64,000 bases of DNA from a virus (Duplodnaviria; Caudoviricetes): the IMG/VR virus record IMGVR_UViG_3300025723_000017, positions 90,060 through 154,059 of that record. One strand, 5' to 3'. The notes beneath the pieces are model-generated. The model had not been told where the DNA came from, did not search any database, and saw only the letters and a list, made by a program, of their open reading frames with translations. Both the position numbers and the translations under genes were made by a program. Every line of letters begins with the position of its first letter. The stretch's first letter is position 1. Positions 19,674 to 44,066 of this stretch are shown here, one piece after another.

Positions 19674-19742
19674 TTCGGCTCCTGTTTGTTTACTGTAACG
19701 TTATTATAGCTGGGGTTGATGTAATTGTCAACCCCCTGAAAC

Positions 19743-26999: not shown

Positions 27000-27000
27000 C

Positions 27001-28039: not shown

Positions 28040-28187
28040 TGACACAGATTAGAGTGATTCCGAGATATGTTGATCATCTATGGTATCCTATACTTGTAAA
28101 AACCACAACAGGTTATAATCGAATCATAGAAATGCAAGGTCGTGCTGTGAATGAATGGAACGACAAAATAAGAAATGGGAGAAGATT

Positions 28188-28349
28188 ATGAAAGTCTATA
28201 TCGGCTATGAATGCTATAACAACTATGCTGACATTTTGAAAACTGTAGTAAAGGTGTTTGACGATGAAGTCAAAGCTCTTGTATGGAAAGAAGAATTCGT
28301 AGAAACAGAAACAGAGTTTCGTGAATATACTGTGATGACGGTAGAATAA
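28188..28349 (+). CDS. Hypothetical protein
   Basis: GGAG RBS before MKVYIG. Confidence 0.6.
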   Translation: MKVYIGYECYNNYADILKTVVKVFDDEVKALVWKEEFVETETEFREYTVMTVE

Positions 28350-28403
28350 AGTTGACAGTTAAAACTTTATCCACTATAATGAATTATGAATAAGGAGATG
28401 GCG

Positions 28404-28859: not shown

Positions 28860-28900
28860 AATGAACGAACGAATTCGGCAACTTGCTAAAAGAATACTAC

Positions 28901-29203
28901 ATGGGTTCTAACTCCTATTACATTATCCAACGACCAATGGAAGATTCTGAACTTGAATGGTATGATGATTCTTCTGTTTGTTATGTCGCTGGTCAGCCCT
29001 CTTACCTTGATTGGGTTATGGACCCACTGGACGCTCGGCGATTTAAATCTATTACCGAGATTCGACGTTATATTACCAATGTATTGAAATTTAACCCACT
29101 TAGTGTGATTAACCTTAAGGCCTGGGAATTTCATCTAATCACTATGATTCCTCCAACAGACATCTTCACTGGAGCGCACACTATGGGCTTGCTTAAAATA
29201 TGA
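28901..29203 (+). CDS. Hypothetical protein
   Basis: ORF coupled to 29200. Confidence 0.55.
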   Translation: MGSNSYYIIQRPMEDSELEWYDDSSVCYVAGQPSYLDWVMDPLDARRFKSITEIRRYITNVLKFNPLSVINLKAWEFHLITMIPPTDIFTGAHTMGLLKI

Positions 29204-29424
29204 CCCACATCTCCATGTGGGATTCCCTTCGTCTGAACCGAAGCAGACAATATCATAATTTCATTCAGTATCTGCAGCGGCAACACGAACCGGCTCTTGT
29301 CACATTGGATTTCGTTATTGAAATACTTCGCCGAGATTGGCACTGTCAATTACTGAAGGAAATGGGTTTATTTATTTTTGAAAACGACGCCGATGCCACA
29401 GTATTTTTACTGAAGTTTAGTTAA
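29200..29424 (+). CDS. F-x-L-[RK]-W family protein
   Basis: FENDADATVFLLKFS. Confidence 0.8.
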   Translation: MTHISMWDSLRLNRSRQYHNFIQYLQRQHEPALVTLDFVIEILRRDWHCQLLKEMGLFIFENDADATVFLLKFS

Positions 29425-29705
29425 TTGTCAATATTGACAATTACATCAATTCAGCTTATAATAACTATAACTTAACAAAACCTATTAGAGGTCAATAATG
29501 GATACAGAATTACGTGAGCAATTTTTACAATTTCTTCGCGAAGAGTTAACTATTGATGTTACTACCGAAAGTGTTTATAGTGGCGGTATGTTTGGTGATA
29601 GCATGTATAGTAAGGTTCGTACATTGAACATTATGCTTGGTAATGAGGTTATTTCGTCTATCTGCCTTGACAGTTAATTAAATCCAGTATAAGGAATTAT
29701 TAATC

Positions 29706-29912
29706 ATGCTACAACTAGTAGAATTTATCAAAACATTTTATCGCGCTATAAAATATGGCTATTTTGAATGTGATTGGATAGGTAGAGACACCTGGCCCCA
29801 AAAATCTTATTTCGCCATTGATGCAACTTATTATGATGGTTATTGGGCTTCAATTAATATTTACAAATTATATATTGGATGGGTGCCGCACCTGCCTGAC
29901 TGTCAGAATTAA
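29706..29912 (+). CDS. Hypothetical protein
   Basis: AAGGA RBS. Confidence 0.6.
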   Translation: MLQLVEFIKTFYRAIKYGYFECDWIGRDTWPQKSYFAIDATYYDGYWASINIYKLYIGWVPHLPDCQN

Positions 29913-29960
29913 AAATTTGACAATTAATACACGTGTCTTTATAATTAACTGTTAATTAAC

Positions 29961-30170
29961 ATGACTGCGCCTATCACTATTTCCTCTACTGTATTAACTC
30001 GTGCGGTGCGTAGTCTATTACATGAGGGTGAGCAGTTGCCTATCCGGGAAGAAATTCTATATCAGGCTTTTGATATTGCAGCAATAATGGATGATTATAA
30101 CTCTCACGGATTCACTGTATTATTCAAATCAGAATATGCAGCTACTATGTTTTTATTAAGGTTTTCGTGA
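29961..30170 (+). CDS. F-x-L-[RK]-W family protein
   Basis: Ends FLLRFS. Confidence 0.8.
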   Translation: MTAPITISSTVLTRAVRSLLHEGEQLPIREEILYQAFDIAAIMDDYNSHGFTVLFKSEYAATMFLLRFS

Positions 30171-30171
30171 T

Positions 30172-30435
30172 ATGATAATCACTGTGCCAGATAAAGTGTT
30201 TCGGCGTGCTACTGCTTCTATCGGAGCGCATTACGAGTTTCCTACATTACGTACCACTGCTACTATTGGAACATCTGACCTGTATCCTGACTTCTTTAGC
30301 ATTTACAATATTAAAAATTATAAGTTAATTCCACAAATTGACGAATTTAACGATTCGGAACCCTTCATTGTGATGTGGCGTATTGAGTTTAAATCAGATG
30401 CCGACGCTGCTTACTTTTTACTGAAGTTTAGCTAA
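30172..30435 (+). CDS. F-x-L-[RK]-W family protein
   Basis: Ends FLLKFS. Confidence 0.8.
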   Translation: MIITVPDKVFRRATASIGAHYEFPTLRTTATIGTSDLYPDFFSIYNIKNYKLIPQIDEFNDSEPFIVMWRIEFKSDADAAYFLLKFS

Positions 30436-30436
30436 C

Positions 30437-30700
30437 ATGGCTAACATGACATCAGAACATCTAGCTGAACTGGCAGAAGAAATTAATCTAACAATAGATT
30501 GGGAAATTCTTTGCACATTAGACCCGACTAGAAAAAATTGGATAAGGATAAAATTTGCTTCCCAAACCAAATCGATAGACAGAGGTGCGATTGATACTTG
30601 GTGCCAACAGACGTTTGTTGGTGGCTATTATATAATTAGAGATCATATATATATTTCCAGAGAAGAAGATGTTGTAATGTTTAAACTGAAGTGGGCGTGA
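30437..30700 (+). CDS. F-x-L-[RK]-W family protein
   Basis: Ends FKLKWA. Confidence 0.8.
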   Translation: MANMTSEHLAELAEEINLTIDWEILCTLDPTRKNWIRIKFASQTKSIDRGAIDTWCQQTFVGGYYIIRDHIYISREEDVVMFKLKWA

Positions 30701-30704
30701 TAAA

Positions 30705-31049
30705 ATGAATAGTCACCAAAGAAGAATTGCAAAGCGTAAGAGCATGCAGGATCGGCGTAAAAGGATAGATATACTATTTGAAAAGATCGTCCCGTTCTAC
30801 TACGCTTCTGTTTCGCCGGTATACACCATTACTCTTAATATTCGTTTTCCTAATTTCACTATTGTAGACCATGCAATGTATGATTATGTACCCGACAACT
30901 ATTGCATAGTGCAGGTACTGTCAAAGGTTGCTGATTGGATAGAACAGCAGGATATTACACTTTGGAAACCTGATGATTCCAACAACCATCTTCAGAGATA
31001 TATTATATCCAATGAGTTATATTCATTGATGGCATTAAGGTGGTCATGA
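30705..31049 (+). CDS. F-x-L-[RK]-W family protein
   Basis: MNSHQRR start; ends ALRWS. Confidence 0.8.
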   Translation: MNSHQRRIAKRKSMQDRRKRIDILFEKIVPFYYASVSPVYTITLNIRFPNFTIVDHAMYDYVPDNYCIVQVLSKVADWIEQQDITLWKPDDSNNHLQRYIISNELYSLMALRWS

Positions 31050-31297
31050 TGGTCACTGATAACCAACGTAGATTAACTCATCAGGTTGTAATAGCTCCTG
31101 CACCTTATGCTAAAATACAACAAATATGCACATGGTGTCAAAATCAATTTGGAAAGAGTTTTGGTATTATTGATAGTGACATTGATGGGACGTGGAGAGG
31201 TGTATATCATGAGATATCATCTGGTGTACCAATTTCATATAAATTCTTATTCGATCACGAAGATGATGCTGTACTTTTTGCGTTGAAATGGTGTTAG
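31046..31297 (+). CDS. F-x-L-[RK]-W family protein
   Basis: ATGA overlap; ends FALKWC. Confidence 0.8.
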   Translation: MMVTDNQRRLTHQVVIAPAPYAKIQQICTWCQNQFGKSFGIIDSDIDGTWRGVYHEISSGVPISYKFLFDHEDDAVLFALKWC

Positions 31298-31298
31298 T

Positions 31299-31544
31299 AT
31301 GTCTTATTATACAGATAATTTAACAAAACACAATACAGAATATACCGCACGCGGCGAAGGTATTCGATATCGTACTCGCTCAATGTTTATGGGTCAGGTT
31401 TACAAATGGTTAAACGAACACAATATTGAATATACATGGGTAGGCCACCAGACTAGTGAGAGAGGCAGTATTACAACTTATTACCTCACTGTGAGTATAC
31501 TTAATGAGCATGACGCCATGCTGTTTATGTTAGCATGGAAATAG
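31299..31544 (+). CDS. F-x-L-[RK]-W family protein
   Basis: Ends FMLAWK. Confidence 0.75.
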   Translation: MSYYTDNLTKHNTEYTARGEGIRYRTRSMFMGQVYKWLNEHNIEYTWVGHQTSERGSITTYYLTVSILNEHDAMLFMLAWK

Positions 31545-31545
31545 A

Positions 31546-31779
31546 ATGAAGAATTTGGGATTTAATTATAAAATATCCGCAGAGGTGGGCAATTACCACC
31601 AACTCGATAATATGTTTACATGGTGTAATGAAACATTCGGCCCTAGATATGGTTCATTTAGTAACAACCAAGGCAGGTGGGCTTGTTTGTGGCAACAATA
31701 CCAAAAGACACATGGATATTTCTGGTACTTTAGACAGGAAGAAGATGCTGCATTTTTTACACTGAGGTGGATAAAATGA
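31546..31779 (+). CDS. F-x-L-[RK]-W family protein
   Basis: WCNETFG; ends FTLRWIK. Confidence 0.8.
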   Translation: MKNLGFNYKISAEVGNYHQLDNMFTWCNETFGPRYGSFSNNQGRWACLWQQYQKTHGYFWYFRQEEDAAFFTLRWIK

Positions 31780-31961
31780 AAAATGATAATTTTATGGTTA
31801 GTAAACCGGGGGAAATTTATATTAGGGTGCCTACAATAACCAAGGAAATACTCATGTGGCTTGACAATTATGAAGGAGATGGTACATATTCACGAGGATG
31901 GTATGGTATATATTTTACTAGAGAAGAAGATGCTGTCATGTTTAGCCTGAGGTGGATATGA
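31776..31961 (+). CDS. F-x-L-[RK]-W family protein
   Basis: Ends FSLRWI; close paralogue of 34444. Confidence 0.8.
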   Translation: MKNDNFMVSKPGEIYIRVPTITKEILMWLDNYEGDGTYSRGWYGIYFTREEDAVMFSLRWI

Positions 31962-32191
31962 GTCAATATAGTCAAGATTCTTTATCACGACGTACATATC
32001 ACGATAATTGGATTCTGATCCAGTTACCTCGTCTACTTTCGCTTGACTGTATTGTATGGTGTTATGAGAAATTTGGTGAAGAACGAATATTACGTGGGAC
32101 TTGTACGGGTAAGTGGCTTCATCGTGGCGCAGGTAACATTGAATTTGAGCGTGAGGAAGACGCTGTATTATTTACCCTGAGGTGGCTATAA
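31958..32191 (+). CDS. F-x-L-[RK]-W family protein
   Basis: Ends FTLRWL. Confidence 0.8.
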   Translation: MSQYSQDSLSRRTYHDNWILIQLPRLLSLDCIVWCYEKFGEERILRGTCTGKWLHRGAGNIEFEREEDAVLFTLRWL

Positions 32192-32430
32192 TGTACTATG
32201 TCAAGAAATCTAGAATCCGTCTACAGATATCACGATTATATCAAAATTGGACAAACATACTTGGTCCTTCCTGGTTCTTTTATACGTTTGAAGAAAGGTA
32301 TCAACAGTTTGATGTGTGGATGGAGAGAGAACATGGTATAATAACAATTCGTTCGAATAATAAAAGCCAAACAAAACTTGGATTTAAGAGCCAAGGTGAC
32401 TTTTTAATGTTTATGCTACGCTGGAGTTAA
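32191..32430 (+). CDS. F-x-L-[RK]-W family protein
   Basis: Ends FMLRWS. Confidence 0.8.
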   Translation: MYYVKKSRIRLQISRLYQNWTNILGPSWFFYTFEERYQQFDVWMEREHGIITIRSNNKSQTKLGFKSQGDFLMFMLRWS

Positions 32431-32495
32431 AATACCACTTACTATAGAGTTAACTTTTTGTTGACATTTAATTCATTCTTAATTAAAATTGATAT

Positions 32496-32849
32496 ATGTA
32501 TACCGAAAACCTATTGATTGATTTTCACAACCTAACGAGTGTTAATCTCCCTCAACACACTTGCATATCTCTACAGCAATATCTGCTAAAGGGATGGGAT
32601 CCAGGTGGATTCCTCAGTGCAGTTCTTATGAATGATATGATGTTGGCTGTGACTCGCGCAGATCCGGTTAACCGCAAGTTTTTATGGGATATCGGACGTT
32701 GGGTCTACACTCAAGCGCCACCTGGCAGCTGGGGCAGTAGAGAAATGGTACTGAATTGGATGAATGATCTAGGCGGTCATAGAAGTAAGTACGCAAACAC
32801 TATAGAACATGAACACTTAATCCATGTGTTAAAGAGGCCTGAGCCATGA
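32496..32849 (+). CDS. Conserved phage hypothetical protein
   Basis: PGGFLSAVLMND...AD..N...P.GSWGS. Confidence 0.8.
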   Translation: MYTENLLIDFHNLTSVNLPQHTCISLQQYLLKGWDPGGFLSAVLMNDMMLAVTRADPVNRKFLWDIGRWVYTQAPPGSWGSREMVLNWMNDLGGHRSKYANTIEHEHLIHVLKRPEP

Positions 32850-33094
32850 AAAAAACTTCTACGTTACCTCGTAACGGACAGTATGAAATCTTTAGTAATG
32901 CAGGAAGAACCTATTGTTTTGATGATCCTGGATTTAAATGGATGTACACACCTGAGGGTATGTTTGATTGGATCAGAGCACAAGATCCAGCATTATGGAC
33001 AGACATGACCCAACTGCATGGATGGCGTGATGATAATTCGGCTTTTTATCTACAACCTAAACTTTATCTATTGTGGAAATTGAGATGGGTATGA
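32846..33094 (+). CDS. F-x-L-[RK]-W family protein
   Basis: Ends WKLRWV. Confidence 0.75.
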   Translation: MKKTSTLPRNGQYEIFSNAGRTYCFDDPGFKWMYTPEGMFDWIRAQDPALWTDMTQLHGWRDDNSAFYLQPKLYLLWKLRWV

Positions 33095-33354
33095 TTTCTG
33101 TGCCTGTGGGTACTTATAACTATCATTATCCTACTTCTGGTGTAATTGTTGTAATTGCTGAGATTCCGCAAGCGTTTCAACATGCGCATCATGCTATAAT
33201 AGCCAAACGCGGTATTCCTACGACTGGTCAATGGTTGAAAACAATGAAGCAGTTGTGGTGGGAAGAATATGGCGTTACTGTTATCAAAGACTGGTTTGCA
33301 CTTGAGTTTGCAACTGAACAAGAATTGACTATGTTTTTGTTGAGGTGGTCATGA
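33091..33354 (+). CDS. F-x-L-[RK]-W family protein
   Basis: Ends FLLRWS. Confidence 0.8.
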   Translation: MISVPVGTYNYHYPTSGVIVVIAEIPQAFQHAHHAIIAKRGIPTTGQWLKTMKQLWWEEYGVTVIKDWFALEFATEQELTMFLLRWS

Positions 33355-33557
33355 AGATTCGAATTCCAGTTGAAGGCAAGTGTTTTGACAAAATTATTCA
33401 ATCATGTGTTGAATCGACATCTACTACTTTGGATATATGGGATTTTATAGAGAACCAGACAGGGGCTCGACGTAAATGGAGTTGGTGGCATCAACAAAAT
33501 TACTTGGTATTTACATCAGAGAAAGATTATGTCATGTTTTTGTTGAGGTGGTCATGA
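33351..33557 (+). CDS. F-x-L-[RK]-W family protein
   Basis: Ends FLLRWS. Confidence 0.8.
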   Translation: MKIRIPVEGKCFDKIIQSCVESTSTTLDIWDFIENQTGARRKWSWWHQQNYLVFTSEKDYVMFLLRWS

Positions 33558-33799
33558 GAATTTATACTAAAGTGATAGTACCTAGACATTATAATCGAAC
33601 GGAACATTCTACCATGCGAAACTGGTGTAAGGAAAACTTCGGCGTTAGCAACAGTAAGAAAGATAAGGATCTTGGTTACCAAAATCCTTGGTATGCTCGT
33701 AGCGACTGGTATCTGATTAACAGACAATATGAGCGGGCGTCATGCTTTTGTTTTCGCAATCCTGCGCATGCCACATTATTTGCCCTGAGGTGGTCATGA
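33554..33799 (+). CDS. F-x-L-[RK]-W family protein
   Basis: WCKENFG; ends FALRWS. Confidence 0.8.
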   Translation: MRIYTKVIVPRHYNRTEHSTMRNWCKENFGVSNSKKDKDLGYQNPWYARSDWYLINRQYERASCFCFRNPAHATLFALRWS

Positions 33800-33990
33800 A
33801 ATTTTACACAGTAAAGATGCCAGAGGCGTATGCCAGAATACAATGGTGTAGAAAGACCTTTGGACCACCATTTCAAAATTTACCAAGGGAACAACGCCAG
33901 TGGAGTAATATACGTTGGTATCGTTGTTATGGCTCTCTTTGTTTTCGTGAAGAATCAGATTATCTGTTATATTTGTTAAGGTGGGCATAA
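33796..33990 (+). CDS. F-x-L-[RK]-W family protein
   Basis: WCRKTFG; ends YLLRWA. Confidence 0.8.
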   Translation: MKFYTVKMPEAYARIQWCRKTFGPPFQNLPREQRQWSNIRWYRCYGSLCFREESDYLLYLLRWA

Positions 33991-34196
33991 TGACTGAATG
34001 GCATGCGGTAATGTATAACTTTCCATCATATGATACCCTAACCAGAATTGAATACGCAAGGAATATGCAAACATGGTTTAAGGAAAACAATATTGAAGAT
34101 TGGCATACTCTACGCGATGAAGACGATAATATGATGATCGGATATGCCTTTAAACATGAGCGTGATGCTATAATGTTTTCATTGAGGTGGTTATGA
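33990..34196 (+). CDS. F-x-L-[RK]-W family protein
   Basis: Ends FSLRWL. Confidence 0.8.
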   Translation: MTEWHAVMYNFPSYDTLTRIEYARNMQTWFKENNIEDWHTLRDEDDNMMIGYAFKHERDAIMFSLRWL

Positions 34197-34447
34197 TGGC
34201 GCGTGTCGAACAATCTAGATTAGAATATCCTGTGGTAATAAAAGTCATATCTTCAGATGAGCTTAACGAAATCGCAACCTGGTGTCATGAACAGTTTGGC
34301 CTGAAGGTTACTGTCGATATTCATGCCAATTATATCTTTGACAGAACATGGCGATTAAGTAGCAACTCTAATTATTTCTCCGGATACTCATTCTCATTTG
34401 ATCGAGAGCAGGATGCTATTTTATTTGCACTGAAGTGGGTGAAATGA
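34193..34447 (+). CDS. F-x-L-[RK]-W family protein
   Basis: WCHEQFG; ends FALKWVK. Confidence 0.8.
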   Translation: MMARVEQSRLEYPVVIKVISSDELNEIATWCHEQFGLKVTVDIHANYIFDRTWRLSSNSNYFSGYSFSFDREQDAILFALKWVK

Positions 34448-34632
34448 AAAATAATGATTTTGTAATTGGTAAACCGGGAGCAATTTATGTTAGGTCGGGC
34501 TCGTTAATAACTAACGAAATAATTGCATGGCTCGATGCCTATGAAGGGAAAGGAGTGTATTCGCGAGCTTTGCATGGTATATATTTTTCTAGAGAAGAAG
34601 ATGCTGTCATGTTTAAACTGAGGTGGGCGTAG
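34444..34632 (+). CDS. F-x-L-[RK]-W family protein
   Basis: Ends FKLRWA. Confidence 0.8.
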   Translation: MKNNDFVIGKPGAIYVRSGSLITNEIIAWLDAYEGKGVYSRALHGIYFSREEDAVMFKLRWA

Positions 34633-34633
34633 T

Positions 34634-34858
34634 GTGAGAATATTATTATTTAAACCTACTAACGTTAATCCCACGTGGTGGTATAATTTCCTAGATGCGC
34701 ACCCAGGGTATACAAATACTGTTGAGCAAATAAATCTAGTTTTATCGCCATTTAATTGTAGATTTTCTGTGAATAATACAAAGAAGGGGTATGGAGCTAG
34801 GTATTTACATTTCAAAACAAAAAGTGATTATCTTATGTTTATACTGAGGTGGTCATAA
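34634..34858 (+). CDS. F-x-L-[RK]-W family protein
   Basis: PTWWYNFL subtype; ends FILRWS. Confidence 0.8.
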   Translation: MRILLFKPTNVNPTWWYNFLDAHPGYTNTVEQINLVLSPFNCRFSVNNTKKGYGARYLHFKTKSDYLMFILRWS

Positions 34859-35064
34859 TGCATAAGCTCAAGACAGCAGCAGGCCTATGGACTATACTTC
34901 AGACACAACCCAATAGTAACATTCGTGAAATTAACCAATGGGCTCGAGATACTTTTGGTTCATCTGAAGTAGCATGGCCGCCACGTTGGATGTACTTATC
35001 TGGTGATAACTACGGATTTCTGTTTGAAGAAGATGCTATGCTTTTTAGCTTGAGGTGGCTATGA
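34858..35064 (+). CDS. F-x-L-[RK]-W family protein
   Basis: Ends FSLRWL. Confidence 0.8.
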   Translation: MHKLKTAAGLWTILQTQPNSNIREINQWARDTFGSSEVAWPPRWMYLSGDNYGFLFEEDAMLFSLRWL

Positions 35065-35294
35065 GTTTACCAGAGCGAGATCGTTGGCCCCACGTGCTAC
35101 GTTTGCCTGATTATCGCCGATACATCACAGATGCGTTAGAGGCGAAGGACCCTAGGGTAATATGGTGCCGTGAGAATTTAAAATCCAATCAATGGCGTTA
35201 TGATGGGTGGCATCCCATAAATTTTCGATTCAAGAATCGTGCAGATGCTGTTATGTTTTCCTTGAGGTGGATATGCATAAACCCATTGTATTAA
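35061..35294 (+). CDS. F-x-L-[RK]-W family protein
   Basis: FSLRW plus short tail. Confidence 0.8.
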   Translation: MSLPERDRWPHVLRLPDYRRYITDALEAKDPRVIWCRENLKSNQWRYDGWHPINFRFKNRADAVMFSLRWICINPLY

Positions 35295-35518
35295 CCCCAG
35301 AAGTAACCACTCGAATTTGGAAAAATTGGCTGATCAAGGTAGAAGGTGAGACTGGCCGAATCCCTCATAGTATGCGCTATAGTTACGACGCTCCTCATCA
35401 CGATCGGTTTCAATCCTGGTTATGGAATCAAGGTGCGGTACTTCGAAAAATCAATAAAAACTATCATATTGAAGCATATGATTCCGATGCAACTATGATT
35501 TCTTTGAAGTGGGGATAG
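35273..35518 (+). CDS. F-x-L-[RK]-W family protein
   Basis: Ends ISLKWG. Confidence 0.75.
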   Translation: MHKPIVLTPEVTTRIWKNWLIKVEGETGRIPHSMRYSYDAPHHDRFQSWLWNQGAVLRKINKNYHIEAYDSDATMISLKWG

Positions 35519-35572
35519 ACAATTGATTAATTTTCGTTTATAATCACAATAATGTAATCAATTGAGATCAGC

Positions 35573-35761
35573 ATGGCTATAAGACATTTTCCATATAAAG
35601 TTGCAGTCAGCGGGTCATACCAACGACAGGATATACATGAATGGTGCGATAAAAATATCGGCGAATATGGTATCATGTGGGGACGTATGGTCATGTCCAA
35701 CAAACCCTACCGATTCCGGTTTAAGCGTGATGCGGTGCTGTTTACTCTGAGGTGGGCATAA
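35573..35761 (+). CDS. F-x-L-[RK]-W family protein
   Basis: Ends FTLRWA. Confidence 0.8.
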   Translation: MAIRHFPYKVAVSGSYQRQDIHEWCDKNIGEYGIMWGRMVMSNKPYRFRFKRDAVLFTLRWA

Positions 35762-35994
35762 TGTATGTCGCATTTTCAGGGCTGAGGCATGTACATGAAA
35801 CTCCATCATGGTTTCAAAACTTTCTCGTGGAATTAACAAAAAAGACAAATTCCTCCCGACTTTCTGTTAAAACTCTAGGCGAAGAATTGGCATTATATGG
35901 AGCAGTTTATAGAGTTCCTAACATTAACATCGGGGCCTCCTTGGAATTCACTACAGAGCAGGATTATCTTATGTTTGTATTGAGGTGGTCGTGA
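35761..35994 (+). CDS. F-x-L-[RK]-W family protein
   Basis: Ends FVLRWS. Confidence 0.8.
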   Translation: MYVAFSGLRHVHETPSWFQNFLVELTKKTNSSRLSVKTLGEELALYGAVYRVPNINIGASLEFTTEQDYLMFVLRWS

Positions 35995-36167
35995 TAACCA
36001 GAATCTATATTCCCGGCATGGTGTCAGCGGAGATGAATACTATATTTAAATGGTGTCTAGATCATTTCGGTGAATATCGTGATCAATGGAATTACAATAT
36101 TATGACTGGTGTCTGGGAGTTTAGAAAATCCAGTGATGCTATGCTTTTTAAATTGAGGTGGGCATGA
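35991..36167 (+). CDS. F-x-L-[RK]-W family protein
   Basis: GTGA overlap; ends FKLRWA. Confidence 0.75.
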   Translation: MITRIYIPGMVSAEMNTIFKWCLDHFGEYRDQWNYNIMTGVWEFRKSSDAMLFKLRWA

Positions 36168-36352
36168 AGATTATATTGTATATGAATCACAGAGACGACG
36201 CAATATTGCAATGGATTATAGACAATAATATTCGGCATACAGTATTAGAAATAAACGTGCATTATCGTTCCTTTGAACTGGTGCCTACAGTAATTGAAAT
36301 TCCAGACGACTCTGTGGATTTAGATCTTTATTTGTTGAGGTGGTCACAATGA
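36164..36352 (+). CDS. F-x-L-[RK]-W family protein
   Basis: Ends YLLRWSQ. Confidence 0.75.
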   Translation: MKIILYMNHRDDAILQWIIDNNIRHTVLEINVHYRSFELVPTVIEIPDDSVDLDLYLLRWSQ

Positions 36353-36582
36353 ACGCAAAACAGCGACGAATTTGGAGAAGAGGGTTTGATCATAAGGTAA
36401 TACTTGAGTATAAGGTAATATTTGATTCTGATATTACCTATTGGAGTGAGTATGAAGCAAGAGCATGGTGTCGTGAAATTTTCGGAGAAGATTTTAAAGA
36501 TTGGGGACACATACATGGAGAAGGCATTTTTTATTTTCGTAAACCAGAACATGCAACTTTATTCAGGTTGAAATGGACATAA
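36349..36582 (+). CDS. F-x-L-[RK]-W family protein
   Basis: MNAKQRR start; ends FRLKWT. Confidence 0.8.
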   Translation: MNAKQRRIWRRGFDHKVILEYKVIFDSDITYWSEYEARAWCREIFGEDFKDWGHIHGEGIFYFRKPEHATLFRLKWT

Positions 36583-36824
36583 CAACTCAGTATACTAAAG
36601 ATGGCTATTGGGTTGTTGTTCCCCCACTTGTAACTCCTTCGTGGTATGTTCGACTATTTGATGAGGCGATTAAACAAGCCCGGCAAAAAAGGTCAAGTGC
36701 GCATTACATGCTTGCACAACTGTTGAGTCAGTATAATGCCCACTATTGTTTTAGCAATGATGGGTTTAGGATTAGATTTGATCACGAACAGGATTATATA
36801 ATGATGTTATTAAAATGGAGTTGA
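36573..36824 (+). CDS. F-x-L-[RK]-W family protein
   Basis: Ends MLLKWS. Confidence 0.75.
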   Translation: MDITTQYTKDGYWVVVPPLVTPSWYVRLFDEAIKQARQKRSSAHYMLAQLLSQYNAHYCFSNDGFRIRFDHEQDYIMMLLKWS

Positions 36825-36833
36825 TGATTATTT

Positions 36834-37067
36834 GTGAAATATACTAATTTCTATAAAGGATGGCATTATATTCAAATGTCCAGTGACATGGATGTAGTGA
36901 AATGGGGAGACTGTTATCAATGGTGTAGTGAGATATTTGGATTCGAACATCACACAAATTCTAGATGGGCTTATGTTGGAAACGGAGCATTTTATTTTGC
37001 CGACGAACATGATTTTCTATTAGTAACATTAAAATTTCCACATTCCTACATAATAAATAAAGTATGA
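36834..37067 (+). CDS. F-x-L-[RK]-W family protein
   Basis: WCSEIFG...FYFADEHDFLLVTLKF. Confidence 0.75.
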   Translation: MKYTNFYKGWHYIQMSSDMDVVKWGDCYQWCSEIFGFEHHTNSRWAYVGNGAFYFADEHDFLLVTLKFPHSYIINKV

Positions 37068-37645
37068 AGATAATTTATATACACGGAGCAAACGCCACTA
37101 GTGAAAGTTTTACTAGGATTAGAGAACACATCAAACAAGACGACTTGGTTATTGATTATGATAGTCGTAATGGATTTGACTATAATCTCGATCAAATGGT
37201 TGATACATTACGAGATTTTGACAATTTGTTCTTTGTAGGACACAGCTTGGGCGGAATTTACGCATTATATCTAGCGGCTAAATTTTATTCTCACAAAACC
37301 CTAGGTGGGATAACACTCAGTACTCCCTACGGAGGATGTCAACAGGCTGACTATGCCAAATATTTTGTACCCTGGAATAGATTAATGCGTGATATTGGAA
37401 TAATTAGTCCAGTTATGCAGGGTGTTAAAGATTTGGTATTGCCCTCAATTTGGGCTAATATTGTTACAACATCAGGAACCAGTCCTTGGATATTAGAACC
37501 AAACGATGGTGTCGTTACACATGCCAGTATGCGGGCTCGTGCTGACATGGAATTAATTGAATTGCCATTAAATCATTACGAAGTAGTTATCAGTAATCGC
37601 ACTATTACAACAATACAACATCAAATTGATTTGACAAATCGTTAA
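37064..37645 (+). CDS. Alpha/beta hydrolase (esterase/lipase-like)
   Basis: YIHG oxyanion motif, GHSLGG nucleophile elbow, STPYGG, NDGVV, NH. Confidence 0.9.
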   Translation: MKIIYIHGANATSESFTRIREHIKQDDLVIDYDSRNGFDYNLDQMVDTLRDFDNLFFVGHSLGGIYALYLAAKFYSHKTLGGITLSTPYGGCQQADYAKYFVPWNRLMRDIGIISPVMQGVKDLVLPSIWANIVTTSGTSPWILEPNDGVVTHASMRARADMELIELPLNHYEVVISNRTITTIQHQIDLTNR

Positions 37646-37702
37646 TTTATTGCTATCATAGCAATATATGATAACTCAATATCTTTTACATATTAGCAAC
37701 GC

Positions 37703-37918
37703 ATGATAGCGGCCGAAATCGAAACCGTTCAATTTAATCATATTGACACAATACATATAGAACGATGGTGTAGCGAGATGCTGGGCCCAAAAGCTATATT
37801 TCGTGATCAAGTCTCAGATGAGTATCCGTGGACAGTTAGTTATTCAGGACTTGGCACTTATCTGTGGCACTTTGCTCATGCAGAATCAGCTACTTTATTT
37901 GCTCTTAGATGGCGATGA
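37703..37918 (+). CDS. F-x-L-[RK]-W family protein
   Basis: Ends FALRWR. Confidence 0.8.
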   Translation: MIAAEIETVQFNHIDTIHIERWCSEMLGPKAIFRDQVSDEYPWTVSYSGLGTYLWHFAHAESATLFALRWR

Positions 37919-38154
37919 GCTATAAAACAGATCTAAACAAGATTTTTCGCAAGCATGCTTTGAGTCCGCCACTGCTGCGGGGTGAGAATATTCTGCAAGA
38001 GATAACCCAAGAGATAACCCAAGAGATGAAATTAAAATACCCAGGAAACTATACTGTAGAGTTATGTTTTCAATTCCGTCGTGGCACCTGGGAGCCACTG
38101 TTAAAGTTTGATAATTCACAAGAAGAAACAATGTTTTTACTGAGGTATTCATGA
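37915..38154 (+). CDS. F-x-L-[RK]-W family protein
   Basis: KYPG subtype; ends FLLRYS. Confidence 0.8.
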   Translation: MSYKTDLNKIFRKHALSPPLLRGENILQEITQEITQEMKLKYPGNYTVELCFQFRRGTWEPLLKFDNSQEETMFLLRYS

Positions 38155-38366
38155 AGAAAATAACTATTACTGGTAAATTACCTGGTCAAGTAATGGAAAT
38201 AGTTCGTGAACTTAGAACCATGGGGTGGGCACAGGGGCAAGATTTTGATTTTGCATATAATGGTCAAGTATGGGACCCAATGACAGGTAAAATGATACTT
38301 AGATATACCATTTTTACTTTTTATAATGAGATGTATGCTACATTATTTGCATTAAAATATTCATAA
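38151..38366 (+). CDS. F-x-L-[RK]-W family protein
   Basis: Ends FALKYS. Confidence 0.8.
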   Translation: MKKITITGKLPGQVMEIVRELRTMGWAQGQDFDFAYNGQVWDPMTGKMILRYTIFTFYNEMYATLFALKYS

Positions 38367-38429
38367 GATTCAAGTGTATTTTGATACAATTGCCAGTTGA
38401 CATTTAAACATTATGGTCGTATAATACTA

Positions 38430-38580
38430 ATACTGTAGTAAAGGTGCTGTCAAGTTACTACAATTTTCCCTTTAAATGCAGCAGCACTAACAGTTGTTTA
38501 CTAAGCAGACGAGTAGATCGCTCCCGAAAGTCTGCGACACCCGAAGCCCTTATAGATTCGCTCCCTATAAGGGCTTCATC
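38430..38580 (+). ncRNA. Candidate structured small RNA
   Basis: TTGACA-17-TATAAT at about 38397-38425; stem TGTAGTAA/TTACTACA, GCAGAC/GTCTGC stem and GAAGCCCTTATAG/CTATAAGGGCTTC hairpin; no ORF. Confidence 0.55.
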
Positions 38581-38598
38581 TTATCAAATGGAAATTAA

Positions 38599-39042
38599 AT
38601 GACAATTATTGATGCAATTACAAAATATAACTTTGATCCGGCAGGTTCTATAGTTCATCCAGCTGACAAAGAATTACCTAAATTTGAATTTAATTCTCAT
38701 TGGATCAGTAATAAAACTACTGGACTAGTTTATCTATGGGTCAAGTATACAAATAATGTTTTAGTTGATATTGCTTATGTAGGTAAAGCAGGACGAACCT
38801 TACGTATGCGCTGTGGGCAACATCACGGCGGATGGAGAGAAAGTTTAAAGACACCTGATATAGAATCTAATCGTACACGTATAATTTCCTGGCTTGCAGA
38901 GCCTGAAAACAGTATACAACTATTTGCTCGAGTGAGCCCTGTATTAGATATTAATGACGAAAAAATTTGTAGTTATAGTATTGACGAAGAATCTTTTATT
39001 AAGAAGTTTCGTAATATGAATTGCGCCTTGTGGAATAGTTAA
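38599..39042 (+). CDS. GIY-YIG-like nuclease-fold protein
   Basis: GLVYLW...AYVGKAGRTLRMRCGQH...EESFI...WN. Confidence 0.7.
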   Translation: MTIIDAITKYNFDPAGSIVHPADKELPKFEFNSHWISNKTTGLVYLWVKYTNNVLVDIAYVGKAGRTLRMRCGQHHGGWRESLKTPDIESNRTRIISWLAEPENSIQLFARVSPVLDINDEKICSYSIDEESFIKKFRNMNCALWNS

Positions 39043-39061
39043 AATATTCATAAAGACTCAT

Positions 39062-39349
39062 ATGACCAATAGAATTGATATAACTAAAAATATTCTCTCT
39101 CCCCGACTGACGCCCGACAGTCCGAGAAAAGTCATAATTGAATGGCTAAATCAAAATGTCGGCCCATCAATACCTAATGAGGATACCAGAGCCGAGCATT
39201 TTGATGATTATATTGGTGTGGGTTGGAGATTTGGCCGAACCACGACGATTATGGAGGCAGCTAACAGGATTCCATATTATGCCACGTCATGGTATGTTGA
39301 AATTGAAGATTCTATATTAGCAACTCTTTTTATCTTAAAATGGGGTTAA
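39062..39349 (+). CDS. F-x-L-[RK]-W family protein
   Basis: WLNQNVGP...GVGW subtype; ends FILKWG. Confidence 0.8.
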   Translation: MTNRIDITKNILSPRLTPDSPRKVIIEWLNQNVGPSIPNEDTRAEHFDDYIGVGWRFGRTTTIMEAANRIPYYATSWYVEIEDSILATLFILKWG

Positions 39350-39350
39350 C

Positions 39351-39584
39351 ATGACAGTTAGACTATTAGTACAAGATCCAACTCGTGGGCAATATCGAAG
39401 TTACATACCGCCTTGGTGGCGTAACTTCCTTAATGATATTCCTATGCCTTTGGCAAAGGCATCAGCATCAGACGTGGTGATTTCAAGATTAGCCGAATGG
39501 GGCGGGCGTCCTGTTGACGGTACTGCATTTATTGAATTTTATCTTGATGCTGACGCCACTAGATTTTTGTTGAGGTGGTCATGA
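39351..39584 (+). CDS. F-x-L-[RK]-W family protein
   Basis: PPWWRNFL subtype; ends FLLRWS. Confidence 0.8.
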   Translation: MTVRLLVQDPTRGQYRSYIPPWWRNFLNDIPMPLAKASASDVVISRLAEWGGRPVDGTAFIEFYLDADATRFLLRWS

Positions 39585-39808
39585 AAAGTGCAAAGATAAA
39601 TCCACCGTATAAATGGAAATTCGACGATCAGTCATCTATGCTGGATATTCAACAGTGGTGCCGACAGCATTTTGGAACTGCTTATCTACAGCTTTATGGT
39701 TATCTCGCAGATTTTGAACAAGAGCTAAGATGGACCTATAGTGACAGAATCTTTTATTTCCATCATGAAGAAGATTATGCTTGGTTTTTGTTGAAGTGGG
39801 TAAAATGA
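39581..39808 (+). CDS. F-x-L-[RK]-W family protein
   Basis: Ends FLLKWVK. Confidence 0.8.
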   Translation: MKSAKINPPYKWKFDDQSSMLDIQQWCRQHFGTAYLQLYGYLADFEQELRWTYSDRIFYFHHEEDYAWFLLKWVK

Positions 39809-40074
39809 CATTTGAGGTAGATAAAATGACATTCGAAATGGTAAAATTCTATGTCGGACCAGATCCAACAAAAAGAAAATTGGCAGAGTTTCATATCGAC
39901 CCTGATCGTAATCAAATCATTATCAATCATATTGAGGGAAGTAGTTGGGAAGACAGAGAAGCATGGTTAGAGCATCACGGTGCAATTAAATATGATTATC
40001 AAATAGGTGATTGGCGCACTACTTGGCCAGTTACTGAAGAACTTTGTGCGCTGTTTTTGTTGAGGTGGGCATGA
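39805..40074 (+). CDS. F-x-L-[RK]-W family protein
   Basis: Ends FLLRWA. Confidence 0.75.
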   Translation: MTFEVDKMTFEMVKFYVGPDPTKRKLAEFHIDPDRNQIIINHIEGSSWEDREAWLEHHGAIKYDYQIGDWRTTWPVTEELCALFLLRWA

Positions 40075-40286
40075 CAAAAGTTGATATGATCAGTCATTGG
40101 AATTTTTATAAGGTGATTAGAGATGAACCTGATCTTCAAGGGAAATATCCTTCTCGGGCATTATTTGAACAATTGATTCGCGAAAAATATGGATTGAAAT
40201 CTGCAAAGGTGCAGCCATTTGATATGTTTGGAGTATTTGAATTGTCACATCGTGATTACACATTATTTTTATTAAGGTGGTCATGA
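40071..40286 (+). CDS. F-x-L-[RK]-W family protein
   Basis: Ends FLLRWS. Confidence 0.8.
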   Translation: MTKVDMISHWNFYKVIRDEPDLQGKYPSRALFEQLIREKYGLKSAKVQPFDMFGVFELSHRDYTLFLLRWS

Positions 40287-40531
40287 TAACGAAACAGGCC
40301 GCAGCAAATTGGCGTGGCTATCCTGATGATATTATAAAGGATACACCTGATTATTATCCCTGGCGCAAATGTTACGTTTGGTATCCTGTTCAAACCATAA
40401 GTGGGCGGTACGCTTGGTTCGAACAATTATACAAGCGTAGAGTCTGGGTTTATTTGGGAAGTTACTATAGTTTATGTTATGAACCTGAAACACAGTACGC
40501 GACCCTGCTCGAACTACTAATGGTTGACTGA
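40283..40531 (+). CDS. Hypothetical protein
   Basis: WRKCYVWYPVQTISGRYAWF; coupled. Confidence 0.7.
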   Translation: MITKQAAANWRGYPDDIIKDTPDYYPWRKCYVWYPVQTISGRYAWFEQLYKRRVWVYLGSYYSLCYEPETQYATLLELLMVD

Positions 40532-40844
40532 TAACCAGATTCACGCTATAATATTAAGATTATCATTGCACACCGAATACACCATGAAAATTATTAAGCT
40601 GGACAAAAGATATAGATATTGGCACAAAGGATTTACTTATGCCATCCGTTGGAGTGGATATAATCACACTCGAATAGAACCGTATTCCATTTTTATGGAA
40701 CGCCATTATGGATCCGAGTATTTATATGAAAACTTGTGGTGCCAGGGGCATGGATCTATTCCCAAGTATGGAAGACGTAATTACTATCTATATGTGCGTG
40801 ATGAACGTATGCTGACCATGGCGATGTTGGGTGTGCAAAATTGA
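40524..40844 (+). CDS. Hypothetical protein (similar to 58788)
   Basis: KIIKLDKRY...YAI...RDERMLTM. Confidence 0.7.
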   Translation: MTDNQIHAIILRLSLHTEYTMKIIKLDKRYRYWHKGFTYAIRWSGYNHTRIEPYSIFMERHYGSEYLYENLWCQGHGSIPKYGRRNYYLYVRDERMLTMAMLGVQN

Positions 40845-41068
40845 ACGCACGGCAACGTCGACGTACCCAAAGATATTGGCTATATCATGTGGTACTGACA
40901 GATTATTATACAATGAGGAATGCCAGAGCCTGGTGTTATGATAATATCGGCAAATGGGGCATTGATTGGATACAACGCCCGGACCATGATACTTTTTATT
41001 TTCATAAATCAAAACATTCGGTTCTGTTTAGTTTGAAATGGCTATGCGTAAAATGTTTAAACAACTGA
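40841..41068 (+). CDS. F-x-L-[RK]-W family protein
   Basis: MNARQRR start (TTG); FSLKW. Confidence 0.75.
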   Translation: MNARQRRRTQRYWLYHVVLTDYYTMRNARAWCYDNIGKWGIDWIQRPDHDTFYFHKSKHSVLFSLKWLCVKCLNN

Positions 41069-41147
41069 TATCAGGGCCATACACGATAGATTGGAAATGG
41101 TATAATGATGACTCAGTCGAATATATCATGCGGAGATTGCGCTATCT

Positions 41148-41378
41148 ATGAGTAGAATATCTTTTAGCAGAGATCAACTTGACCGAGCGGGAGATTGTAT
41201 CAAATGGCTAATGAAAAATGTCGGGCCCTTAGAAGATCATCACGGAGGTAGTTATGTACGTGGTGTTGGGTGGGAATATTGGGTTGTTAACAATCCTGAG
41301 ATTTTAACAGTACATGTTGAATTAACTGCGGATGTTGACGAAGAAACACAAATACTTTTTATGTTGAAATGGGCATGA
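41148..41378 (+). CDS. F-x-L-[RK]-W family protein
   Basis: Ends FMLKWA. Confidence 0.8.
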   Translation: MSRISFSRDQLDRAGDCIKWLMKNVGPLEDHHGGSYVRGVGWEYWVVNNPEILTVHVELTADVDEETQILFMLKWA

Positions 41379-41620
41379 CGAAAATAGATAAAAATTGGCA
41401 AAGAGATTTGCGTGCATTTGAAGATGAATGCAGTGCAAAATATCATAATATGCTGTTGCACGGACAAGATATCAAAAGTGATTGTTTAGATAAAATGCAA
41501 AAAAAATATCCAGGTAAATATGATCTTATTTGGGCAAAGACTGACCATATGCTGTGGCATTTAGAAATAATGTTTGAAGATCCAGCTGAACAAACATTAT
41601 TTTTATTGAAGTGGACATGA
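41375..41620 (+). CDS. F-x-L-[RK]-W family protein
   Basis: KYPG subtype; ends FLLKWT. Confidence 0.8.
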   Translation: MTKIDKNWQRDLRAFEDECSAKYHNMLLHGQDIKSDCLDKMQKKYPGKYDLIWAKTDHMLWHLEIMFEDPAEQTLFLLKWT

Positions 41621-41853
41621 TGTCAATTGAAATTCAACGGTATACGGACATTGTAGTACAATATAAAAGTATTGATATGTTAGACTGGTGCAATGAGAAT
41701 ATTGCCGGATATGGACGTTGGGTTAACCCAACATTTTATTTTGATGCAGGATATGCTTGGTATGCTCGTAGATACATGAGTGGCGATTCACGAGTTATTT
41801 TTAGTTTTTTACGGCCAGAAGACGCCACACTATTTTTATTGAGATGGACATGA
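41617..41853 (+). CDS. F-x-L-[RK]-W family protein
   Basis: Ends FLLRWT. Confidence 0.8.
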   Translation: MMSIEIQRYTDIVVQYKSIDMLDWCNENIAGYGRWVNPTFYFDAGYAWYARRYMSGDSRVIFSFLRPEDATLFLLRWT

Positions 41854-42047
41854 AAGTAGAAAGAACAACATTCCCGGGTTGGAGCGATCACCCCTTATAT
41901 CGTGTTAAAACGCAGGCTGATTATCGTACGATTGGACAATGGATGTGTGAGAACGAATGTGACGATTTCTTGGTAAGCAGTGGCAGCTATGGATATGTCT
42001 TTCAAGTTAGAAAAAATCATGATTGGTTTTTATTGAGGTGTACATGA
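41850..42047 (+). CDS. F-x-L-[RK]-W family protein
   Basis: Ends FLLRCT. Confidence 0.75.
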   Translation: MKVERTTFPGWSDHPLYRVKTQADYRTIGQWMCENECDDFLVSSGSYGYVFQVRKNHDWFLLRCT

Positions 42048-42271
42048 CTGTGATCAAATTAAAATATCCACTAGATCAGAGTTTCTTTGCTCATGTAAAA
42101 CTACATGACCGGCAAAGAAAATGGTGCACTGAACAATTTGGCCCAGAAGGTATTTGGAAAGATGAACTCGCAATAGAAGACTCATATGCACAGTTATATT
42201 TAACAGGTGTTACTTGTTGGTATTTCGCTAACGAAGAAGATGCTGTGTTATTTGCCTTGAGATGGGCATGA
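42044..42271 (+). CDS. F-x-L-[RK]-W family protein
   Basis: WCTEQFG; ends FALRWA. Confidence 0.8.
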   Translation: MTVIKLKYPLDQSFFAHVKLHDRQRKWCTEQFGPEGIWKDELAIEDSYAQLYLTGVTCWYFANEEDAVLFALRWA

Positions 42272-42468
42272 TGCACATAGTTAGAGTACCCTTTCGTGTA
42301 CCTCCCCAGAGCACTGTCGGAATGAATCTTTGGTTGACACAACAGCTAAAGTTAGTGTATAGACAAGACTGGAAGTGGTATAGTTCATATCCTGAATATG
42401 GATATTATATCTATCAATTCAAAGATGAACAAATGGCCACAATCTTTGCCTTGCGGTGGGTTAGATGA
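42268..42468 (+). CDS. F-x-L-[RK]-W family protein
   Basis: Ends FALRWVR. Confidence 0.8.
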   Translation: MMHIVRVPFRVPPQSTVGMNLWLTQQLKLVYRQDWKWYSSYPEYGYYIYQFKDEQMATIFALRWVR

Positions 42469-42860
42469 AATTACTGGATGACATACGGGACCGTTGGACG
42501 ACATGGCGCACCGGCAAGAGCCGAACAGAGCGTGAGTGGGAGGATTGGTATGACAAGAATGTCAACTGGCGTGCAAATAATATTACCGATATGTTTAAAA
42601 ACTTTAAACATGTCATTGAAGTAGATGCTACTAAGTTTTTATGGGACGAAGGAACGGTCTGGGCTCCACACCCAGCTGCTCAACAATACTTCTATCCACA
42701 GAGATCCCTGGGTGAAAACTGTGTCTGGCGATTAGAAAGAGTATCATGGAGCGATTGGCAAAAGCGTTGGATAATAAACGGAATAGGCAGTGAAGATCGA
42801 GTATTTGTTGCGACAAATTCAGATGAAGATGCTGTAATGATTGCTCTGAGGTGGAGATGA
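42465..42860 (+). CDS. F-x-L-[RK]-W family protein (long)
   Basis: Ends EDAVMIALRWR. Confidence 0.8.
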   Translation: MKLLDDIRDRWTTWRTGKSRTEREWEDWYDKNVNWRANNITDMFKNFKHVIEVDATKFLWDEGTVWAPHPAAQQYFYPQRSLGENCVWRLERVSWSDWQKRWIINGIGSEDRVFVATNSDEDAVMIALRWR

Positions 42861-43141
42861 AGATATTTCTCAATTCAGACTGCCGAGTAAGCATGCCCAT
42901 GCTGGTGTGGTTAAGTTACAATATTGGGCCCATTGAAAGCACTCGTGCTCCTGGGCCCGATCAATCGTGGACTCATCAACCGAGGCGTCATGTTGGACCC
43001 GAGTGGTGGACCCAACATCAAGGCCGAGGATGGGAAATAATGTACACTCCTCGAAGACAGGAGCAACAGACAAGACGGGGCATTTACATTGATATTGATG
43101 ATGAACAACTGGCCGTGTTGTTTTCCTTGAGGTGGTTATGA
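42857..43141 (+). CDS. F-x-L-[RK]-W family protein
   Basis: Ends FSLRWL. Confidence 0.8.
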   Translation: MKIFLNSDCRVSMPMLVWLSYNIGPIESTRAPGPDQSWTHQPRRHVGPEWWTQHQGRGWEIMYTPRRQEQQTRRGIYIDIDDEQLAVLFSLRWL

Positions 43142-43359
43142 AAAGAATAGAAGGATATCCACCGCTTGATTGGCATGAAGTTGTCATACTTTGGACTGAC
43201 ATTATAAAGAAGCAGTCCTATCATTCTATAATAGAATGGCTTGACAAAACTATCGAAGGATGTTATTATCATATAGATATATTTAATCAACCAGAAGGAA
43301 TAGCGTTTAGATTTGAACAGCGCGGAGATGCTATATTGTTTAAGCTGAAATGGGCATGA
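43138..43359 (+). CDS. F-x-L-[RK]-W family protein
   Basis: Ends FKLKWA. Confidence 0.8.
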   Translation: MKRIEGYPPLDWHEVVILWTDIIKKQSYHSIIEWLDKTIEGCYYHIDIFNQPEGIAFRFEQRGDAILFKLKWA

Positions 43360-43619
43360 ATATAATGACAGAAAACTATATTCCTGATAGACAAGACCAA
43401 GTCGAAATGAAGAATCATTATATTCACGAACTCAAAGAGCCGCATGCAGCAACTACCGCAGAGCTGCTAGCATGGCGAAATAAATGCAGAGCTATGCAAG
43501 AATGGTGTAATGAACAAGGATTTACATGGGGACTGTGTGATATAACCAACAGAATGGCAGTAAAATTTTATTTTTCTCGTTCGGAAGAGTTAACCATGTT
43601 TCTATTAAAATGGGCATAA
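43356..43619 (+). CDS. F-x-L-[RK]-W family protein
   Basis: Ends FLLKWA. Confidence 0.8.
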   Translation: MNIMTENYIPDRQDQVEMKNHYIHELKEPHAATTAELLAWRNKCRAMQEWCNEQGFTWGLCDITNRMAVKFYFSRSEELTMFLLKWA

Positions 43620-43625
43620 GGAGTT

Positions 43626-44066
43626 ATGTTAATGTTGAGTATGATAGCATTTGATTTAGATGGGGTATTAGTTCCTGATTACAGTCACATTGAGGGGCTA
43701 AATCACCAACAGTTTTATGAGTATACTATGTATGCTAAACCACTTATCAATCCCGTTGGTAAGTTTGATATTGTAACAGCAAGATCGGAACAATATCGTA
43801 CAATTACCGAACAATGGATTAAACAGTTGAAGACAGCACCACAGCGTGTGATTATGAAAGCCAACAAAGATGAGTCACCGGCTGATTATAAAATTCGCAT
43901 GTGTCGTACACATGGATATGACGTTTTTGTTGAATCCGATGCCGATATTGTAAAAGAAATGACGGCAGCTAAAATCGAAGGTTTAACTGTTGTTTACTTT
44001 GATGAATATGTTACAGAACATTTAAATTCACATACAGAAAGTCTGTTCAATTTTATCAATAGGTAA
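43626..44066 (+). CDS. HAD-superfamily phosphatase
   Basis: IAFDLDGVL motif I, IVTAR motif II, K motif III, FVESD motif IV. Confidence 0.8.
   Translation: MLMLSMIAFDLDGVLVPDYSHIEGLNHQQFYEYTMYAKPLINPVGKFDIVTARSEQYRTITEQWIKQLKTAPQRVIMKANKDESPADYKIRMCRTHGYDVFVESDADIVKEMTAAKIEGLTVVYFDEYVTEHLNSHTESLFNFINR

Follow-up and report, generated by a model that had tools for sequence, protein, structure and literature searches.

Tail codons of a tandem small-gene family in a metagenomic phage: protein end, probable ribosome-binding site and crossover point

Translation of a bacterial gene can be coupled to that of the preceding gene by termination-reinitiation at overlapping stop and start codons of the form ATGA or TGATG (PMC6728339). 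In overlapping gene pairs, an intragenic ribosome-binding site is reported typically to precede the downstream gene, and its removal cut reinitiation in four of five pairs of Escherichia coli (PMC6728339), the contribution of such intragenic sites ranging from none to essential (Huber et al. 2019, PMC6728339). At the level of whole genes, the hyperplastic regions of T4-type phages undergo modular shuffling by means of promoter-early stem-loop (PeSL) cassettes (PMC2839356, PMC4122927). A third kind of exchange concerns cdiA, in which the DNA encoding the VENN peptide motif bounds exchangeable modules and has been proposed as a recombination site (Poole et al. 2011, PMC3150448); orphan cdiA-CT/cdiI modules without initiation signals have also been described (PMC3150448). 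Here we analyse a tandem array of about 51 small paralogous genes in a 64,000-nucleotide (nt) stretch of viral DNA, positions 90,060 to 154,059 of IMG/VR record IMGVR_UViG_3300025723_000017 (the window), and the junction made of the last codons of one array gene and the start of the next.

We consider it probable that the codons of the protein tail have three functions in this array: they encode the end of the protein, they supply a ribosome site and an overlapping start for the next gene, and they serve as a short-homology crossover point. The junction resembles the coupled pairs of E. coli (PMC6728339) in its -4 and -1 overlaps and in having the ribosome site in the last codons of the upstream gene, but there the site is idiosyncratic to one pair, whereas here it lies in a protein motif shared by some 50 paralogs. 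It resembles PeSLs (Arbiol et al. 2010; Comeau et al. 2014) in that small non-essential early genes are bordered by a short, conserved signal for their expression and the indel crossovers between close phages fall inside the signal, as a result of which a moved PeSL gene keeps its means of expression; for the junction, such crossovers were found in phages that carry the family rather than in kin of the window. Different from the junction, a PeSL is intergenic, about 100 bp long and defined by a promoter and a terminator, features that the junction lacks; the latter is 8-22 nt long, lies within coding DNA, operates at the level of translation and also encodes a protein motif. The VENN-encoding sequence likewise couples a peptide motif to module boundaries, but it lies inside one very large gene, where it swaps toxin tips and has no role in starting translation of a next gene. 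Set beside the gene cassettes of integrons, the junction is a 15-nt coding core. A full-text literature search, limited in extent, retrieved no description of the family or of this triple use, and the combination of protein motif, ribosome site and crossover point looks undescribed. Its general kinds, translational coupling and PeSL-type shuffling, are already known, and the junction is a new variation on them rather than a new principle.

The array and its coding junction

The source record is a single contig of 154,059 bp, of which the window is the final 64 kb. Genes for a clamp loader, PhoH, a head-maturation protease and several phosphohydrolases assign the contig to a large tailed phage; among cultured phages, no near relative of the contig was found. 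The gene list of the array was anchored on a hidden Markov model (HMM) of the family, which was run against all open reading frames (ORFs) of the genome in six frames, and was combined with an alignment. The array of ~51 paralogs (58-131 residues) lies on the plus strand at 26506-43619. An earlier annotation made from the letters alone (hereafter the sequence-only reading), which had proposed that the conserved protein tail doubles as the ribosome site of the next gene and as a shared DNA junction, had located the array correctly but had given it a narrower extent (30990-43370). The C-terminal module of the family approximates F-x-F-x-x-E-x-D-A-x-x-F-x-L-[RK]-W-x, accompanied by a conserved Trp farther upstream, and all array members terminate in a hydrophobic residue followed by L-[RK]-W-x.

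In the type junction, at 33340-33354 on the plus strand, L-R-W-S is encoded as TTG AGG TGG TCA and is followed by a TGA that overlaps the next ATG. The 15-mer TTG-AGG-TGG-TCA-TGA ends at 33354, 33557 and 39584, and a CTG variant, the sixth junction, ends at 33799. A variant with the Ala tail codon GCA, GAGGTGGGCATGA, occupies 36155-36167 (plus strand), and the identical sequence also ends at 40074; the positions that had been named from the letters alone, those of the five junctions other than the CTG variant, were all borne out. The pattern GAGGTGGNCATGA gave 6 matches in the sequence vs 0.00 in 100 shuffles.

The next start is placed at -4, -1 or +1 relative to the stop in 41 of the 47 internal junctions, which is the stop/start spacing of a translationally coupled operon: 29 have an ATGA or GTGA overlap (-4), 5 have TAATG (-1) and 7 have one spacer base (+1). 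In four others the start lies at -10, +4, +6 or +9, and in the last two ATGA has changed to ATGC. Both of these stop-lost junctions retain the next ATG in its usual position. At the first (35264-35294, plus strand), the upstream protein is 7 residues longer and the next ATG, at 35273, still lies 5 nt behind GAGG. At the second (41035-41150, plus strand), an 8-residue extension ends at 41068, and a remnant member of 35 residues (41044-41150, plus strand) takes its start from the ATG immediately after the L-K-W motif of the stop-lost gene before it; the remnant ends in L-R-Y-L (Arg CGC) and has an ATGA overlap with the next start. At the -4 overlaps in the window the tail residue is varied (S, A, L, I, T, V, R), but the third base of its codon is A throughout, which the overlapping ATG makes necessary.

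An in-frame GTG (in AGG-TGG) or ATG (in AGA-TGG and AAA-TGG) occurs 6 nt upstream of the real ATG and accounts for the MVM, MGM, MDM and MAM starts in ORF lists, which the sequence-only reading had rightly taken as spurious. The GTG, at -10, was considered as the true start and rejected, as it would have no ribosome site of its own and an ATG almost always follows 6 nt later. It is very improbable that AGG is kept as a rare, slow codon two codons before the stop, or that its GTG starts the next gene, with no pairing to the 16S ribosomal RNA (rRNA). AGG is indeed the second-rarest Arg codon of the genome (4.3%) and the GTG shares its reading frame with the ATG that follows, but neither explanation has need of a G-ending Leu codon before AGG (84-91% vs ~30%) or of a fixed 5-nt distance to a nearly ever-present ATG.

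Codon choice at the protein tail

Among the 51 motif-bearing members, the motif position is Arg in 32, Lys in 18 and Ala in 1. AGG encodes 25 of the 32 Arg residues (78%), with AGA used 5 times and CGC and CGG once each. In comparison, across 91 long ORFs that do not belong to the array, AGG makes up 50 of the 1156 Arg codons (4.3%; Fisher p 3.5e-26), and in the bodies of the family genes it makes up 17 of the 243 (7%; Fisher p 2.6e-18). In 21 of the 25 AGG members, the preceding Leu codon has G as its third base, vs a background of 25-31%, and thereby completes a GAGG. Stop codons are also biased, being mostly TGA in the array vs 78% TAA in the other genes.

Of the 47 internal junctions, 25 have GAGG at a distance of 5 nt upstream of the ATG. 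The other genes of the genome carry AAGGAG, with GGAG 5-6 nt before the ATG, which aligns with the rRNA tail just as GAGG plus 5 nt does, so that the register of the two kinds of site matches. We calculated the energy of the duplex with the anti-Shine-Dalgarno (anti-SD) sequence for the observed junctions and for synonymous recodings weighted by genome codon usage. The mean was -8.2 kcal/mol for the observed junctions and -3.5 kcal/mol for the recodings (Wilcoxon 1.4e-7), and AGG-type junctions ranged from -7 to -16 kcal/mol, all values assuming that the host has the canonical 16S tail. On the same assumption, an intragenic anti-SD-complementary site at a working distance from the start is present at the 25 GAGG-bearing junctions. 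The proposal that each gene carries the signal to translate whatever follows therefore holds, in the sense of a strong site, for about half of the junctions and fails for the 22 of 47 without AGG, in which the motif codon is AAA or AAG (Lys), AGA or CGG (Arg) or, once, an Ala codon.

The junction is not confined to the window. An exact 21-nt junction taken from it was found in 30 IMG/VR viral contigs of 4-382 kb and, among metagenome stretches, in at least 117, giving at least 147 stretches in total, and the family is thus abundant in metagenomic phage contigs. With the family HMM, 148 of these loci proved to contain 848 members, the largest array having 37 genes, and 534 members were left for statistics after removal of matched sites, contig edges and duplicates. 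In this wider sample, the motif Arg is AGG in 304 of 396 cases (77%) vs 7.5% in the gene bodies, and the Leu codon ends in G in 91% of cases before AGG and in 8-46% before CGN. AGG was used by 272 of 326 members (83%) with a gene directly following, defined as a next ATG within +4 nt of the stop, and by 32 of 70 (46%) otherwise (odds ratio 6, p 2.8e-10). A is the last base of the tail codon in 263 of 263 overlaps of the -4 type. AGG in the motif is thus well above background in the window and in other contigs alike, and its use is linked to the presence of a directly following gene.

In the window, the four operon-ending members (ends 29424, 32430, 35518 and 38366) use AAG, CGC, AAG and AAA, and never AGG, a set too small for a test on its own. 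A within-window comparison of AGG use with operon ends gave p 0.05, a value obtained with the member ending at 41068 still counted as terminal; that assignment was ruled out by the lost stop and the 35-residue remnant gene behind it.

The uniform AGG-TGG ending could also be a product of inheritance or homogenisation of the copies, through recent duplication, gene conversion or unequal crossing-over, its likeness to a ribosome site being incidental. Such a process is mechanistically possible, recombination at the junction being real, and it would fit both the 46% of AGG in uncoupled members and the excess of TTG over CTG before AGG (232 vs 41 in the wider sample), which goes beyond the need of a ribosome site. 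However, in the window, which was not selected for its junctions, conservation is limited, position by position, to what GAGG, Trp and A-TGA require: the first Leu base varies (T 25, C 13), as do the first two bases of the tail codon and the codons farther upstream. Together with the increase of AGG on direct coupling and with a spacing that matches the unrelated AAGGAG sites of the phage, this leaves homogenisation as the source of the pattern quite unlikely.

Breakpoints of gene gain and loss

No close kin of the window (at least 88% identity) was found: a megablast search against phages was empty, two other window proteins led to no such kin, and the best match of a hydrolase gene embedded in the array was 61% identical and had no array around it. 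Breakpoints were therefore examined in other phages that carry the family. Two of them (L008 and L012) are ~98% identical over 10.5 kb and differ by three array indels of 306, 652 and 866 nt, corresponding to 1, 2 and 4 whole genes. In the short alleles, the switch from the left to the right copy takes place within the L-R-W codons or the stop/start core, and the shared runs at the crossovers are ~5, ~35 and 9 nt long.

Contig pairs at least 88% identical yielded 27 non-redundant array indels, judged to represent ~20 distinct events. By an automatic criterion, overlap of the breakpoint with a region that opens 23 nt ahead of a family stop and closes 3 nt behind it, 23 of the 27 fall in a junction; all 27 do by eye, the remaining 4 lying at junctions of weaker L-K-F or L-K-Y members. 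Junction windows make up 8.7% of the array sequence, and the chance of at least 23 in 27 is 5e-21. Insert sizes of 155-1008 nt are consistent with multiples of the 242-nt median unit. Overlaps at these indels span -12 to 44 nt (median ~15 nt) and are positive in 24 of 27 (4-44 nt). The two outcomes set beforehand as refuting the sequence-only reading were AGG use at background and breakpoints unrelated to the junction, and neither was found.

Ten indels outside the arrays of the same contigs use other repeats. Among the non-array sequences, indel overlaps of 41-71 nt lie in a repeated element (L003:2738-3072, L021:2969-3030, L040:145-215 and L120:5766-5829), which, read on the opposite strand, resembles by eye a TATAAT promoter with a GGAG ribosome site and an ATG behind it. 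It would be a PeSL-like transcription cassette in phages that also use the coding junction.

Several points weigh against assigning all three functions to the tail codons. The 22 of 47 junctions with little or no anti-SD complementarity are still overlapped, and the strong site is therefore dispensable for chaining. AGG is found in 46% of members without a directly following gene; part of its bias may be inherited rather than selected, or the uncoupled class may include genes that are short or begin with GTG. Because a single exact junction 21-mer was used to collect the wider sample, lineages with that junction type are over-represented in it, even with the matched sites removed. Two loci reached through a neighbouring glycosyltransferase (66-67% identical) have just a few members of the family in the corresponding position (L001:3861-4886 and L002:6028-6651). 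TAA-ATG links these genes, and their motif codon is CGT (Arg) or AAA (Lys), not AGG; possession of the large AGG-type array is therefore specific to a lineage and not a universal feature of the family. With regard to recombination, no breakpoint was seen in the array of the window itself, 3 of the 27 array indels are without overlap, and some overlaps are only 4-5 nt long.

The missing and very short overlaps would also fit breakpoints that merely reflected selection against damage to genes and coupling, or joins made by an assembler, with no guidance of recombination by the shared sequence. Selection by itself would likewise favour breakpoints that keep genes intact, and the six overlaps of at least 20 nt, which are in the range of k-mer assembler mis-joins, could in principle be assembly joins at repeats. 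Against this, 24 of the 27 indels do overlap, and most overlaps, at less than 20 nt, are not long enough to produce a de Bruijn mis-join. Several short alleles recur in contigs from different samples, and the non-array indels of the same contigs use repeats of other kinds. Moreover, crossovers follow the longest local identity: between L133 and L110, the crossover is located 44 nt into the conserved stretch that encodes the helix, and crossovers therefore track local identity rather than simply the gene border. Thus, we regard selection or assembly without guidance by the shared sequence as unlikely.

The three-function reading, which we favour, can be set out as a sequence of steps. At the protein level, each member would end in an amphipathic helix closing on F-x-L-[RK]-W, as a rule with one residue more. 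In about half of the members, the tail codons would be chosen so that the same bases serve two further roles. At the RNA level, a G-ending Leu codon and AGG-TGG form GAGGUG, complementary to the canonical 3' end of 16S rRNA, and a single A-ending tail codon plus TGA places the next AUG over the stop, 5 nt behind GAGG. A terminating host ribosome may then be retained by GAGGUG and restart at the overlapping AUG, so that up to ~15 chained genes could be translated from one early promoter; at non-AGG junctions, reinitiation would proceed through the overlap alone.

At the DNA level, the shared core is the longest identity between neighbouring paralogs. In-register identical runs between pairs of window junctions have a median of 5 nt (8 nt for AGG-type pairs), a 90th percentile of 10-12 nt and a maximum of 22 nt; exact identity is usually 8-12 nt, and the common end of 15-30 bp that had been proposed was an overestimate. 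A short-homology crossover or replication slippage between two junctions would remove or add whole genes, and each event would restore an intact tail, ribosome site and stop/start overlap. Because the crossover would rebuild a complete junction, recombinants would always be in frame, coupled and expressible. A stronger version, which we hold to be possible but doubtful, is that the junction has been selected for shufflability as an integron-like cassette site without an integrase, reshuffling early small effector genes. In that case any gene gained, lost or swapped would at once be in frame and translated, providing a rapidly reshuffled repertoire, for example against host defences, possibly via single-gene circles as in PeSLs.

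Operons, family identity and significance

The array is a series of early operons headed by promoters rather than the single self-assembling operon suggested from the letters alone. Consensus sigma70-like promoters, several of them 12/12 matches, are located in the few true gaps of the array. A 12/12 promoter at 29917-29945 (plus strand) heads the operon 29961-32430, whose terminal member has CGC at the motif Arg and a TAA stop (end 32430) and is followed by a 65-nt gap (32416-32489, plus strand, for member end and gap together). Inside this gap lies an 11/12 promoter (32461-32489, plus strand), and the next operon is 32496-35518. Another 11/12 promoter, at 35516-35544 (plus strand), follows the terminal member ending at 35518 (Lys AAG) and heads 35573-37645. 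The operon 37703-38366 ends in a terminal member with Lys AAA and TAA, after which a 12/12 promoter is placed at 38397-38425 (plus strand) and a further operon runs from ~38599 onward. The last member of the array (43605-43628, plus strand) has Lys AAA and TAA, and the unrelated gene that follows has its own AAGGAG after the stop.

A few unrelated genes are embedded in the array. One of them, at 37064-37645 on the plus strand, is the alpha/beta-hydrolase gene mentioned above, which has an ATGA overlap with the preceding member; the others are at 32496-32849, 38599-39042 and 40283-40531. Directly upstream of the array, at 25288-26518, are three paralogous genes (133-140 residues; N-termini MSEWSHLPN or MTTAW.HLPN) that are likewise chained through ATGA overlaps, the first of which had no PHROG match. 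Two stray, weak family matches (E ~0.002-0.003) lie 25 kb from the array, at 1244-1480 and 1749-1964, one of them terminating in F-A-L-K-W-R-R followed by TAA-ATG. Elsewhere in the window there are a 98-nt perfect direct repeat with an offset of 89 nt (3016-3113 and 3105-3202) and a 63-nt repeat of 97% identity (19429-19491 and 19671-19733).

Searches of Pfam and PHROGs with five array members matched no family, and one member had no tblastn match among cultured phages. When 5.8 billion proteins were searched with a profile, the sole hit was the window's own protein, as the family is short, and in a protein atlas the family corresponded only to viral clusters labelled 'hypothetical'. For one member, the cluster at 90% has 15 contigs on record. 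An AlphaFold2 model built with the 51 paralogs as the alignment predicts a small beta-alpha-alpha-beta-beta-alpha domain with a mediocre predicted local distance difference test (pLDDT) score of 69, in which the motif would be the last helix; compared with the PDB, the model had no match at E <= 0.001. For the member at 42044-42268, a likeness to PARP/Macro/WWE proteins (a eukaryotic structural neighbour with a template-modelling (TM) score of 0.62 by query, DUF406 being another) was rejected as too weak. The family does have conserved W, W and E positions, and its predicted topology shows no obvious fit to a WWE domain.

The junction would hold three layers of information in ~15 bases, repeated some fifty times. 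It would offer a sequence-level account of how the small-gene regions of phages may gain and lose genes without breaking expression, and it would extend the PeSL idea from transcription signals to translation signals that lie within coding DNA. It also explains the start errors that gene finders make in such arrays. Finally, the array would provide a natural system for gauging how far a ribosome site influences codon choice and the C-terminus of a protein.

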